Virus record (IMG/VR): IMGVR_UViG_3300020204_000007
Coordinates: 96,001-160,000 of that record
Strand: one strand, 5' to 3'
From: a virus
DNA length: 64,000 nucleotides
A model generated the notes under the pieces. It saw only the letters and a program-made list of their open reading frames with translations, searched no databases and had not been told where the DNA came from. A program made the position numbers and the translations under genes. Positions 6,167-41,377 of this stretch are shown in pieces; position 1 is the stretch's first letter, and every line of letters begins with the position of its first letter.

Positions 6167-6195
6167 TTAAGTTTACCAATAGCGGTTGCCGATAA
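6167..6195 (+). promoter_or_regulatory. sigma-28-type promoter, long-spacer class
   Basis: TTAAGTTT-N13-GCCGATAA followed by 5' hairpin and GGAGG RBS. Confidence 0.7.
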
Positions 6196-6243
6196 ATATA
6201 TTGTAAGGAGCGAGTGTTCCTTACAAAACATCGGAGGTTTACC

Positions 6244-6672
6244 ATGGCAAAAATTGCTCGCTACGCTGGCCGGGAGTTGCAAATCGTAAACGCAGTAATT
6301 GCCGCTTTTGGCGGCAAGGAAATTTGGAACCAGGATTTAGCATCCTGGCTCCGCAGCCAGTTTCCCGACGTGCTCGGCGGCACCCGCGCCGCCGAAAATT
6401 TCCTGGAAGCCGTCGGCATGGCGGATTTTGCCAGCGCCCACTCCCGCACCGGCAAGCCCCGCACCCTCGGATACGCCGCATTCCGCGGCGTGCGCCGCCA
6501 CCGGGCTGGCGAGCCTGCCCACACCGAGCCTCGCGCTCGGTACTGGGTTATTCCCAGTCGACCCTACACCGCCCTGCTTACTAAGCAGGAAGTATTCGCC
6601 CGCCTAGGGGCAGCCGTGCCACGGCCGCTCCCCACCAAGGAGCGCACCACACCCTACCACAAGGTAGGGTAA
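6244..6672 (+). CDS. basic early protein, related to 8457-8864 and 9494-9883
   Basis: GGAGG RBS, ATG 6244; IVNAVIAAFGGKEIWNQDLASWLRSQFPDVL aligns with paralogues; followed by GC hairpin. Confidence 0.75.
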   Translation: MAKIARYAGRELQIVNAVIAAFGGKEIWNQDLASWLRSQFPDVLGGTRAAENFLEAVGMADFASAHSRTGKPRTLGYAAFRGVRRHRAGEPAHTEPRARYWVIPSRPYTALLTKQEVFARLGAAVPRPLPTKERTTPYHKVG

Positions 6673-6775
6673 TCCCGCGGGGGGCGCAAGCCCCCAACAC
6701 TCCCCCACATTTTAGTGGCTACGGGGGACGTAGCATCCACACCCAACGGGGGTACAGCCCCCACAGGAGGTTTCC

Positions 6776-6946
6776 ATGTCCAACAACCAACGCTCCATCC
6801 TGTCCGCACCCAACCCTTTCGACCCATCCAACGACTGGGTGGACGAGTGGGATATGCCCACCGACCCCTACGAACTCCTGGACCGGGAGTACCGTAGGGA
6901 GGAAGCCCTCGAACTCGCTAAGGAACGAAAATACGGAAGGGGGTAA
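6776..6946 (+). CDS. small acidic hypothetical protein (56 aa, not in ORF track)
   Basis: AGGAGG RBS; MSNNQRSILSAPNPFDPSNDWVDEWDMPTDPYELLDREYRREEALELAKERKYGRG. Confidence 0.7.
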   Translation: MSNNQRSILSAPNPFDPSNDWVDEWDMPTDPYELLDREYRREEALELAKERKYGRG

Positions 6947-7030
6947 TACCCCTCCGCTCCCACCACATTTAGTGGCTCGGTGGGACGAGCAAAACAACCA
7001 ACGGGGGCTCCGCCCCCACAGGAGGATACT

Positions 7031-7285
7031 ATGTCCAACAACAACTCCATCCTCGTTTACCGCGCATATGCCACCGAGGGCGTCCATGCCCTCGTGTTGG
7101 CGAGCACTGCTCGCTCGTTCCACCCCGACGAGGTCGGGTGCTACCGACGGGAGGTGGATGTCCTCCTCCCCTGCGGGCGGCGGGTAACCGCCCGCAAGGA
7201 GGCCGGGTTCGACGGCCTCGGCTCCGGCCAATACTCGGGGTGGGGCATCCCCGAGGAGGACGGGGGTTACCACCTGCAATGGTAG
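7031..7285 (+). CDS. hypothetical protein
   Basis: AGGAGG RBS, MSNNNSIL start resembling 6776 gene; terminator follows. Confidence 0.7.
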   Translation: MSNNNSILVYRAYATEGVHALVLASTARSFHPDEVGCYRREVDVLLPCGRRVTARKEAGFDGLGSGQYSGWGIPEEDGGYHLQW

Positions 7286-7291
7286 TCCCAC

Positions 7292-7319
7292 GGGGGGGTA
7301 ACCCCCCCATCCTTTTTTT
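7292..7319 (+). terminator. intrinsic terminator
   Basis: G7-TAA-C7 stem then T run. Confidence 0.8.
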
Positions 7320-7348
7320 ACTACTGGATAACAGAGCTCTGTTATTAC

Positions 7349-38779: not shown

Positions 38780-39330
38780 ATAAGACCAACCTTTCTTAGC
38801 ACATAATTTGGAGTTGTCTCTACTACCGTAACAAAATTCTTGCTTCTTGCTTGCAACCACTCCTTCATTTCACGATGCATTTTTAGAACTTCGTCAAAAT
38901 CTTCCCATCTGCCACTACCTTTATATCTTTCGGCATAAACTTCTGGAGTAATATCTAAAAATACATCAACAATTTCACAATTATATTGTTTTTCTAATTG
39001 TCGTTCCCATTCTATAACGCATGGTTCTAGGTGATTAAATAAATCTTTTCCGTAATATGTAGAAAACCATGCACAGAGTTTTGGCGTGCTATCACAAAAC
39101 ACAGCATCATAATTTGCTTTTATGCAATTCACTAACAGTTGCGATTGATTTCCTGCAATCCATAATTGATCAATGGGTGTTGGCCGATATTCTGCTCGTT
39201 GTGCATGGTCTTTAATAAATTCCCAACAATAACCAACGTTCTTTCCAAGATACCCCATCGAAGAATAACAAGCTGTTGCAAGACTACTTTTGCCAGAACC
39301 TGGTGCGCCATAGAATGCAATTATTTTCAT
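38776..39330 (-). CDS. P-loop kinase/ATPase (NadR/AAA_28-like)
   Basis: GAPGSGKSS, WEFIK, VFCDS. Confidence 0.8.
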   Translation of the reverse strand: MKIIAFYGAPGSGKSSLATACYSSMGYLGKNVGYCWEFIKDHAQRAEYRPTPIDQLWIAGNQSQLLVNCIKANYDAVFCDSTPKLCAWFSTYYGKDLFNHLEPCVIEWERQLEKQYNCEIVDVFLDITPEVYAERYKGSGRWEDFDEVLKMHREMKEWLQARSKNFVTVVETTPNYVLRKVGLI

Positions 39331-39426
39331 ACAAAATATGCTCCGGTGGGTATATTAGTATGTAGCAGGGCAAACAACTCAAAGACAAACAAAAACCTTA
39401 ATGATTTAAAAATATATTTTTGGATA

Positions 39427-39453
39427 TAAAGTTAGATTCCAAAGCTCCGATAT
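39427..39453 (+). promoter_or_regulatory. sigma-28-type promoter
   Basis: TAAA-N15-TCCGATAT, then TGTTGG..CCAACA hairpin. Confidence 0.8.
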
Positions 39454-39493
39454 GTAGGTGTTGGCAATAATGCCCAACAATAAGGAGTACAAC

Positions 39494-40600
39494 ATGAGTC
39501 GTTTTGATAATATTTTCCTCGCCCATCACCGCACAAAGTTGCCATTGATTTTGTGGGGTTCTTCCGGCTACGGCAAATCCTCTACAGTTAAAGGTTTTTG
39601 CCAACGTCACAATTACCGCCTTGTTGACAAACGTACTGTGTTTATTGATCCGCTTGAAATTCAATTGCCAGTTAAGAATGAAACCGAACACGTTGTTGAT
39701 TTGTGGCCTGCTCGTTGGCTCCATGAACTTTGCAAAAGCAATGAACCTACCGTCCTGTTTTTGGATGAGCTTAATCGTCCTAACAGTCTCCAAACACTTA
39801 ATATGTTGACTCAGTTGCTGCTTGACCGCGAGTTGAACGGTATCCGACTTCCTGAGAATGTGTTGGTAATTGCTGCGGGTAACCTTGACACTGAAGATAC
39901 TGGTGTACAAGAACTTCCCGATGCAGTCATTAACCGCTTGACTCACTTGGTTTTTGCTCCCGATGAGTTTGAAATTATGGGCAATATGCAAAGTAAACTT
40001 GCACAAGAAGCCCTTAAACTCAATCCTAAAATTGTTGGCAAACCCGGTCTTCCTGAACTTAAACTGAAAAATTGTCCACGCCAAATTGATGCTGCGGTTC
40101 AGTTGTGGGAAACTGAACTACTTAATGAGGAGGAACTCGCTCTTGTATGTCGCGGTCGTTTAGGCAATGAATCCGGCAATATTCTTGCCAGTACGTTGAT
40201 CCAAATTAAACGCAAAGAAGAATTTAAGCTCCCACGCAAAGTTTTGCCTGAACTGTTCGAGAAAATTTCCCAATGCGAGCAGGAAGGTATGATCATTGAA
40301 ATTGTTTCGTTGTTCAAATCCGAGCTACAGTCGCATGAAGGCAAACGTACATTGAAGAAACTTGAGCGGCATATTTCTGATTACTTGCTGCAATATGGTT
40401 CGCCTGAGCTTGCTCGCTCCATGCAAGAAGCTAAGTTTGCTTTCCGCTATGACCAAACTGAGTTTCCGGTGGATAAAGACAACAATCCGTTCAAAGATAT
40501 GCGGCCTGAAAAAGAAGGAGCCGAAGTTAAAGATACTGGTTTGCCGTGGCAGCTCTATGCTTTGAAGCTTGGTAAGCTGTCGCCAAAAGATCGCTCCTAA
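39494..40600 (+). CDS. MoxR-like AAA+ ATPase
   Basis: WGSSGYGKS, LFLDELNR, IAAGN, AVINR, CPR; AAGGAG RBS. Confidence 0.88.
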   Translation: MSRFDNIFLAHHRTKLPLILWGSSGYGKSSTVKGFCQRHNYRLVDKRTVFIDPLEIQLPVKNETEHVVDLWPARWLHELCKSNEPTVLFLDELNRPNSLQTLNMLTQLLLDRELNGIRLPENVLVIAAGNLDTEDTGVQELPDAVINRLTHLVFAPDEFEIMGNMQSKLAQEALKLNPKIVGKPGLPELKLKNCPRQIDAAVQLWETELLNEEELALVCRGRLGNESGNILASTLIQIKRKEEFKLPRKVLPELFEKISQCEQEGMIIEIVSLFKSELQSHEGKRTLKKLERHISDYLLQYGSPELARSMQEAKFAFRYDQTEFPVDKDNNPFKDMRPEKEGAEVKDTGLPWQLYALKLGKLSPKDRS

Positions 40601-40630
40601 TAAGAGCGGTGTGTGTTGTACCCCTTCTCT

Positions 40631-40661
40631 GCCCTGTCCGTGTTACACGGGCAGGGCTTTT
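40631..40661 (+). terminator. intrinsic terminator
   Basis: GCCCTGTCCGTG-TTA-CACGGGCAGGGC-TTTT. Confidence 0.85.
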
Positions 40662-40675
40662 GATTCGAGGTTTTT

Positions 40676-41377
40676 ATGAAAATGTTTCCTGTTTTATTGA
40701 CCACTGTTTTAGTCGCTTCTAATGTTGCATTTTTTCATTTGTTTCAGTTTGAAAAAGAAAAAACTTTTTCTCTTCAACAACAAGTACAAACAAGCGAAGA
40801 AAACAATGCGCGGATATTAAAAGAACAAAAAGAAAAAACACAATTTATTGAATTTGTGAGTACTGCTATTGCTCTTGCTGCTCCTAAGTCATCCGAATCC
40901 AAAAATGCTTATCTAGGTTCGCAAATTGTTAGAGTTGGTTTAGACTCGTTTAGCGATAAAGAAGAACGTGAAACATGGGTTGCAATTTTAGCCAACGAAA
41001 GTCGATTCAACCCAAAAGCTAAATCACCTGTGGGTGCTATTGGTATCGGTCAAATTATGCCTAAATCTGCAAAATGGTATGCAGAAAAATGTAACCTGCC
41101 CACTGATTTTACCGATGAAGACCTGTATCTTGTTGAAATAAACCTTACTATCTCGGCCTGCGCATTCAAAGAAATGCTTAAGAATGTAAATAATTCTAAA
41201 ATTCTTGCTCTTATTTCATATAATGCAGGTCAATTTTCCAAAGATCTAAAACGTGTAGAGCAAATGGCAAATATCAATCAAGAAACTGCCAATTATGTCA
41301 CAAAAATCACTCGGTTTTTAGAAAAAGTGCGCGACAATCCTGCTATTAAGTTAGATCCCAAAACTTCCGATAAATAA
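40676..41377 (+). CDS. membrane-anchored lytic transglycosylase (SLT domain)
   Basis: NESRFNP.A.SPVGAIGIGQIMP, SYNAG, ETANYV; N-terminal TM. Confidence 0.9.
   Translation: MKMFPVLLTTVLVASNVAFFHLFQFEKEKTFSLQQQVQTSEENNARILKEQKEKTQFIEFVSTAIALAAPKSSESKNAYLGSQIVRVGLDSFSDKEERETWVAILANESRFNPKAKSPVGAIGIGQIMPKSAKWYAEKCNLPTDFTDEDLYLVEINLTISACAFKEMLKNVNNSKILALISYNAGQFSKDLKRVEQMANINQETANYVTKITRFLEKVRDNPAIKLDPKTSDK
41346..41373 (+). promoter_or_regulatory. sigma-28-type promoter variant (16-bp spacer)
   Basis: TTAA-GTTAGATCCCAAAACT-TCCGATAA upstream of AAGGAGG RBS. Confidence 0.65.

Follow-up and report, generated by a model that had tools for sequence, protein, structure and literature searches.

Sigma-28-type promoter sequences arrayed along the accessory-gene arm of an uncultivated lake-water phage

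In textbook cases, phage transcription starts from sigma-70 promoters of the host or relies on a polymerase or sigma factor that the phage supplies. A phage genome in IMG/VR (record IMGVR_UViG_3300020204_000007) raises the question of whether part of a phage programme can be placed under sigma-28, the flagellar sigma factor of the FliA/SigD family. The genome is a single contig of 169,059 bp with a GC content of about 35%; it is rated 100% complete by CheckV, no end repeats were found, and its DNA is present in many lake-water metagenome runs, 14 of which contain at least 40% of the sampled words; no RNA run is among those listed for it. An earlier note on a 64,000-nucleotide stretch of this contig (bases 96,001-160,000, hereafter the window) had claimed, from the letters alone, that 24 FliA-type promoters precede early-type genes. 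In this paper we ask whether these sites are real, whether they are promoters and which factor would read them. That the motif is a bipartite promoter of the sigma-28 type is well supported by its sequence and placement. We think it probable that the sites depend on a host sigma-28 of the FliA/SigD family, a reading in which we infer both the identity of the factor and the transcript starts from sequence.

The motif TAAA-N15-(T/G)CCGATA has 17 exact matches in the window, against 0.13 +/- 0.34 expected from 100 dinucleotide-preserving shuffles, and all 17 take the fuller form TAAAGTT(A/T)GA-N9-(T/G)CCGATA. These are the 17 sites that the earlier note had listed; the variant with a 16-bp spacer and the six long-spacer copies in a GC-rich island, which it had also reported, are likewise present (Table 1). 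Its total of 24 was one short, since a looser scan that adds the 41346-41372(+) variant and the six island copies also finds a site at 36928-36953(-) that had been missed, for a total of 25. Across the whole 169,059-bp genome the same 17 exact sites are the only ones, all of them at 106.7-135.4 kb, and no exact motif lies in the structural modules, which bears out the statement that the tail module has none.

The -35 box reads TAAAGTT in 17 sites and TTAAGTT in eight. CCGATA is invariant in 25 of 25, and the base that follows it is T or A in nearly all; the base that precedes it is T in 17 of the 19 sites of the main class and its variants, G at 19904 and 6167, and A in the other five island sites. 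When sorted by the form of the -35 box, 16 sites are TAAAG-N15, one is TTAAG-N15, one is TTAAG-N16 and six, all in the island, are TTAAG-N17, with the 11168 site as an additional N15 site carrying TAAAGTTTGA. Expressed as the distance between octamers, the spacing is exactly 11 bp in 18 sites, 1 bp longer in one (41346) and 2 bp longer in the six island sites. Information content peaks in both boxes and in the TGT directly after the -10 box.

All 25 sites are co-oriented with the next gene and stand 19-54 nt upstream of a Shine-Dalgarno sequence (SD) and start codon, much as the earlier note had described. They precede non-structural genes exclusively. The genes behind them encode a dUTPase, a dCMP deaminase, a Mom-like protein, a methyltransferase, a 2-oxoglutarate (2OG)-Fe oxygenase and a ClpP-like protease, and an AAA ATPase and SLT and VWA-like proteins are further products of the same promoter arm. 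Given the dUTPase, dCMP deaminase, Mom-like, methyltransferase and ClpP-like content, 'accessory / pre-replicative' is a safer label for these genes than 'early'.

The published E. coli sigma-28 consensus is TAAAGTTT-N11-GCCGATAA (PMC2859248). The phage core, TAAAGTTA-N11-TCCGATAT, agrees with it at 13 of 16 positions and has the same spacing. In class 3 FliA promoters of E. coli and Salmonella the octamers are 11 bp apart, as they are in the phage form TAAAGTTA-N11-TCCGATA(T/A). The -10 box of B. subtilis SigD promoters is GCCGATAT, whose terminal T agrees with the phage box. A second close match is cellular: in Bdellovibrio bacteriovorus, TTAAG-N16-CCGATA occurs in 92 of 140 mapped attack-phase promoters and is attributed to FliA (PMC3627812). 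The TTAAG boxes of the phage variant and island sites are those of this regulon, and the 41346 site has exactly its form, whereas the Bdellovibrio sites are cellular and spaced by N16 and the phage sites are viral and spaced by N15 (18 sites), N16 (one) and N17 (six). The assignment to the sigma-28 type thus holds when set against published FliA motifs. The phage sites differ from FliA/SigD promoters in their density, about 25 in 35 kb, and in their position before genes for nucleotide metabolism, DNA modification and proteins of unknown function rather than flagellar genes; they also have T for G at the first -10 position and an extra invariant GA after the -35 box. A likeness to SPO1 late promoters (GTTAGA ... 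GATAT) was rejected, as the spacing is off by about 5-6 bp.

Sigma-70-like sites are not enriched, either across 10.5-30.4 kb, where 77 were observed and 78.2 were found in shuffles, or genome-wide under a stricter scan (70 observed, about 110 expected). No more than scattered TGnTATAAT or TATAAT boxes stand before some replication genes, and the replication genes elsewhere in the genome lack the sigma-28-type motif. Outside the window, the sequence CAGTTGGCTTTATATAA(A)TATGGG(G)ATATATA is common to the regions upstream of two structural operons, those for baseplate and sheath (C1:25514(-) and C1:87119(-)), and is a candidate late promoter of another class. Judging from the replication genes without the motif and the CAGTTGGCTTTATATAA-type sequence before structural operons, the sigma-28-type class is one of several promoter classes in this genome.

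If host sigma-28 is the reader, host core RNA polymerase with a FliA-family sigma would recognise TAAAGTTA as its -35 box and (T)CCGATA(T/A) as its -10 box, and the expected start of transcription is the conserved TGTA/GTAGG, about 6-9 nt downstream of CCGATA. The leader would then supply a stabilising 5' stem-loop in some cases and a ribosome-binding site right at its start in others. A stem-loop (-5 to -12 kcal/mol) is predicted for thirteen leaders, starting some 7 nt after CCGATA, a few bases at most from where the transcript is expected to begin; in the others the ribosome-binding site begins at about the same distance. In 9 of the 18 sites with main-class spacing the upstream gene uses the TAA of the -35 box as its stop codon, and in three more of these a stop codon lies 4 nt before the box. 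Such stop-promoter-leader-ribosome-binding-site cassettes could re-initiate transcription every 0.4-3.4 kb in the 10.7-30.1 kb run along the accessory-gene arm. As there are few + strand terminators within the array, the promoters would serve to boost and restart transcription along a long co-directional run of genes. Expression of the arm would in that case depend on free sigma-28, and so on a motile or sigma-28-dominated cell.

Whole cassettes, from -35 box to ATG, are repeated at 91-100% identity over 60-67 nt, and the likeness ends at the coding sequence. In T4-type phages, PeSL modules made of an early promoter and a stem-loop lie between small accessory open reading frames (ORFs) and are copied within the genome. 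The modules seen here are likewise repeated pairs of promoter and stem-loop that flank small ORFs, and within the genome the copies are more alike than the genes they flank, as in the T4 case; PeSL promoters are sigma-70 early promoters, whereas the phage boxes are of the sigma-28 type.

Table 1. Putative sigma-28-type promoters in the window (positions are those of the window; aa, amino acids)
Position	Strand	Class	Features
6167..6194	+	island, TTAAGTTTACC-N10-GCCGATA (spacer +2)	hairpin leader; ATG at 6244
7452..7479	+	island	
7950..7977	+	island	
8382..8409	+	island	
9295..9322	-	island	
9933..9960	-	island	
10679..10704	-	main, TAAAGTTAGA-N9-TCCGATA	22 nt to ATG of 60-aa ORF
11168..11193	+	main, TAAAGTTTGA variant	5' hairpin leader; 97-aa ORF
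12307..12332	+	main	inverted near-identical copy of 10704(-) cassette up to ATG
14232..14257	+	main	
15070..15095	+	main	TAA is stop codon of upstream ORF; 5' hairpin leader
16249..16274	+	main	cassette 91% identical to 15070 over 66 nt
17898..17923	+	main	TAA is upstream stop codon
19904..19929	+	main (GCCGATA)	before 33-aa hydrophobic ORF
21236..21261	+	main	
22630..22655	+	main	TAA is upstream stop codon
23065..23090	+	main	promoter, leader and ribosome-binding site identical to 22630 (53 nt, TAAAG to ATG)
24503..24528	+	main	TAA is upstream stop codon; 5' hairpin
25177..25202	+	main	TAA is upstream stop codon
25587..25612	+	main	67-nt cassette 100% identical to 24503
28550..28575	+	main	TAA is upstream stop codon
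30130..30155	+	main	5' hairpin leader
36928..36953	-	TTAAG variant, TTAAGTTAGA-N9-TCCGATA, main-class spacing	100-aa ORF
39427..39452	+	main	before AAA ATPase gene; kept at orthologous place in relative
41346..41372	+	TTAAG-N16-CCGATA variant, TTAAGTTAGA-N10-TCCGATA (spacer +1)	before 574-aa ORF

Which factor reads these sites turns largely on what the phage itself encodes. A six-frame family search of the whole genome found neither Sigma70_r2 (PF04542) nor FliA_WhiG (TIGR02479), and PF04545 (r4), PF08281 (r4_2) and TIGR02937 gave sub-threshold helix-turn-helix matches only. In hmmscan, 179 small and medium ORFs and most of the large ones yielded no sigma factor, FlgM or RNA polymerase, the two largest (2,121 and 1,637 aa) not being scanned; the genome search that the earlier note had called for thus recognised no phage sigma factor or polymerase among the ORFs covered. 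Regular expressions for sigma regions 2.2 and 2.3 found no match in the phage genome. The case for a host factor rests chiefly on the lack of a FliA-like protein in a genome rated complete. It falls short of proof, since no family could be assigned to several ORFs of 600-800 aa or to most of the small ones.

Two weak candidates were followed up. A 188-aa protein, encoded by the last part of the portal operon, carries a helix-turn-helix that weakly resembles sigma r4 (E 0.004); its close homologues are all unannotated, and its AlphaFold model is unusable (mean pLDDT 41). It was rejected as a sigma factor, since the helix-turn-helix lies mid-chain behind a Cys-rich N-terminus, there is no region 2, and searches of NCBIfam and PDB gave no sigma-like match; it is better read as a DNA-binding protein, possibly a small terminase. 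For a 235-aa protein with a weak r4_2 match, the follow-up search gave nothing sigma-like.

Related and unrelated genomes bear on the same question. By DNA (megablast and blastn) the core and island of the window match no cultured phage. By protein the closest cultured relative is Myxococcus phage Mx1 (169,621 bp; portal 28%, tail sheath 33% and DnaE 28% identity), and SPO1-like portals come second at 22% identity. Mx1 has no TWAAG-N15-17-CCGATA site, and its host, Myxococcus, is non-flagellated. Nearer relatives are uncultivated contigs. In one (G003), whose portal is 85% identical, there are 2-3 sites with the same boxes and other spacers, each before an SD and ATG, and they lie about 30 kb from the portal in the same layout as in the phage. 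In a second (G111), whose AAA ATPase is 89% identical, the promoter site is kept at the orthologous position: the intergenic DNA has diverged around T(A/T)AAGTTAGA and AAAGCTCCGATA, which are kept, and the leader stem has another sequence in which pairing is still possible. This contig has a further site with a spacer 1 bp longer.

A search of IMG/VR with the exact full consensus gave seven single hits, which is chance level apart from the relative G003, and with TAAAGTT-N12-TCCGATA the matches listed were mostly single chance matches. At least six other viral records carry strand-coherent arrays of 3-11 TWAAG-N15-16-CCGATA sites, where the reversed control pattern occurs 0-1 times each. Three are complete, namely G112 (87 kb, 6 sites), G113 (243 kb, 10 sites) and G114 (56 kb, 11 sites); G117 has 5 sites, and G115 and G116 have 3 each. 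The loci of G112, G113, G114 and G117 are L136, L085, L152 and L105. In the stretches examined, the sites precede short leaders, some with 5' stem-loops, followed by SD and ATG. Two other array-bearing contigs had no DNA match among cultured phages, and tblastn with proteins of G112 and G114 indicated no host. A 'direct terminal repeat' of G112, considered as a sign that its array lies at the first-injected end, was dropped, being 127 bp only and probably an assembly overlap. Neither of the complete genomes G112 and G114 has a match to Sigma70 region 2 or region 4. G113 encodes a 169-aa extracytoplasmic function (ECF)-type sigma factor whose nearest family is of Bacteroidetes type, and the leaders in this genome have no SD.

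The gene content of the phage includes a contractile tail, a DnaE-type polymerase, a ribonucleotide reductase and a 5-hydroxymethyldeoxyuridine (5-hmdU) DNA kinase; because the kinase is present, thymine in the phage DNA is probably hypermodified. The kinase gene (C1:79776-80699(-)) adjoins a gene for a 2OG-Fe(II) oxygenase-like protein, and aminotransferase and phosphatase genes are also found in the genome.

Several of these observations weigh against a host sigma-28. Cellular sigma-28 promoters vary more than these 26-nt sites, whose spacers are semi-conserved, and such uniformity is also typical of promoters read by phage factors or of cassettes that were copied recently. At the first -10 position most sites have T and not the consensus G, and the spacer of the island class is 2 bp longer. 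The probable hypermodification of thymine would alter the T-rich -35 box in virion DNA. Most ORFs are without a family, which leaves room for a very divergent specificity factor, and in G113 an array coexists with a phage-encoded ECF-type sigma factor, so that possession of the motif is by itself no proof that host FliA is used.

The foremost alternative is that a phage specificity factor (a divergent sigma, a sigma-appropriator or an RNA polymerase) reads the sites, which would then be a middle class that merely resembles sigma-28 promoters. Comparable classes are known: SPO1 gp28 and gp33/34, T4 gp55 and phiEco32 gp36 each define a class of uniform non-sigma-70 promoters over a block of genes, as seen here. 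SPO1, T4 and phiEco32 encode their own sigma factor, whereas hidden Markov model (HMM) scans of nearly all ORFs found none in this phage. The uniform sites, the many ORFs without a family (large ones of 614-760 aa among them), the weak helix-turn-helix of the 188-aa protein and the ECF-type factor of G113 all leave a place for such a reader. On the other hand, a factor that reads the exact cellular boxes, TAAAGTT-N12-CCGATA, should resemble FliA and so be detectable, yet this genome, rated complete, has no match to region 2, region 3 or the FliA family, the 188-aa candidate fails as described, the complete array genomes G112 and G114 match neither sigma region 2 nor region 4, and the sites are missing from Mx1. 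We regard a phage-encoded reader as unlikely.

A host factor may also be of the FliA or group-3 kind and have no tie to flagella, serving a developmental or life-stage programme as do sigma-28 of Chlamydia and the attack-phase FliA of Bdellovibrio; the arm would then be linked to cell state and not to motility. The Bdellovibrio motif is a global, non-flagellar promoter class linked to the motile non-growing state, and it controls many non-flagellar genes (PMC3627812). The 41346 site matches that motif exactly, the nearest cultured relative infects a Myxococcus, and one Bacteriovoracaceae genome holds 14 TAAAG-N15-CCGATA sites against 4 in the control. Scanning 185,579 bacterial species genomes for the full phage consensus was less encouraging and gave 38 single hits, most of them inside conserved coding sequence that recurs in several unrelated genomes, and few that are promoter-like, in Bacteriovoracaceae, Treponemataceae and Clostridiales. 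Bdellovibrionota homologues share no more than 45% identity with the phage RNase H, an uninformative level, and the main class has the enteric and Bacillus spacing of N15, not N16. A host factor with no tie to flagella is rated as improbable.

It is very improbable that the repeats act mainly as joints for recombination or as sites for protein binding (operators, or signals for packaging or replication) and resemble promoters only incidentally: the near-exact cassettes (up to 100% over 67 nt, ending at the start codon) and the 9 of 18 sites whose -35 TAA is the upstream stop codon are what modular joints would give, but the boxes are conserved while spacers vary, both in the genome and in relatives, orientation to the downstream gene and SD distance are strict in 25 of 25, and a recombination role is compatible with promoter function, T4-type early-promoter cassettes serving both.

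Dependence on the host's flagellar sigma-28, the reading we prefer, would tie the accessory arm to a host checkpoint, as FliA is freed only after export of FlgM. No phage promoter regulon of the sigma-28 type turned up in literature searches, and the sole related case known to us is flxA, a single sigma-28-dependent gene of the E. coli Qin prophage. A phage with flagellar sigma-28 as its only recurrent promoter class would tie part of its programme to the motility checkpoint, which could explain state-dependent susceptibility and would suit flagellum-dependent adsorption. The sites would also be a sequence signature that predicts, for uncultivated phages, the type of host (flagellated and FliA-bearing) and the cell state they need, and the arrays in at least six other viral records suggest that this signature is not unique to the present genome. 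A broader proposal can be offered only tentatively, and we lean towards doubting it: that unrelated phages without a sigma factor follow a recurrent, undescribed strategy of arraying host FliA promoters before early or accessory genes, that infection is permitted by the motile or attack-phase state of the host, once FlgM export has set FliA free, and that the present phage is an Mx1-like myovirus whose host is a flagellated, Gram-negative bacterium of fresh water with low GC, possibly a Bdellovibrio-like predator. The phage encodes wall hydrolases (SLT, GH19 and M15) and a family-9 glycosyltransferase of the lipopolysaccharide (LPS) type, heptosyltransferase-like, which falls in mostly viral clusters. 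A Gram-negative host fits the lysins and the LPS-type glycosyltransferase better, while the earlier suggestions of a flagellotropic phage and a Bdellovibrio-like host are speculation.

The island occupies window 5900-10100, a block of about 4 kb with 46-54% GC inside the 35% GC genome. Its six copies of the motif have the form TTAAGTTTACC-N10-(G/A)CCGATA, and they differ from the main class in GC (54%), in the bases that follow the -35 box and in the length of the spacer, which suggests that they were acquired from another phage or host system of the same logic. Each of its short genes has its own sigma-28-type promoter with the longer spacer, along with a hairpin at the 5' end and a terminator rich in G/C. 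Between 6122 and 8965 there are also sigma-54-like boxes (TGGCAY-N5-TTGCT), mostly in overlapping face-to-face pairs such as TTGGCATACAACTTGCTATAGCAACAACTATGCCAA. The boxes of a pair are mirrored and the 5-nt spacers are not palindromic, so the pairs are not simple hairpins; two overlapping convergent -24/-12 promoters could hardly both fire. The palindromes ACAGAGCTCTGT and ACAGAATTCTGT lie upstream of these sigma-54-like boxes.

Between the divergent promoters 10704(-) and 11168(+), at window 10750-10815, an extended -10 box, TGCTATAAT, is followed about 30 nt on by a terminator-like hairpin (GCCCTCATAAATTGGGGGT, then a T run), and this element may be a small RNA driven by sigma-70. The window also holds a single tRNA-Ile gene with anticodon TAT (43435-43510). 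Outside it, at C1:34600-34900(-), a 791-aa ORF contains six tandem 39-nt coding repeats (GTGGAAGCTAAAAAAGAATCAAAACC...), each of which specifies a 13-residue peptide unit.

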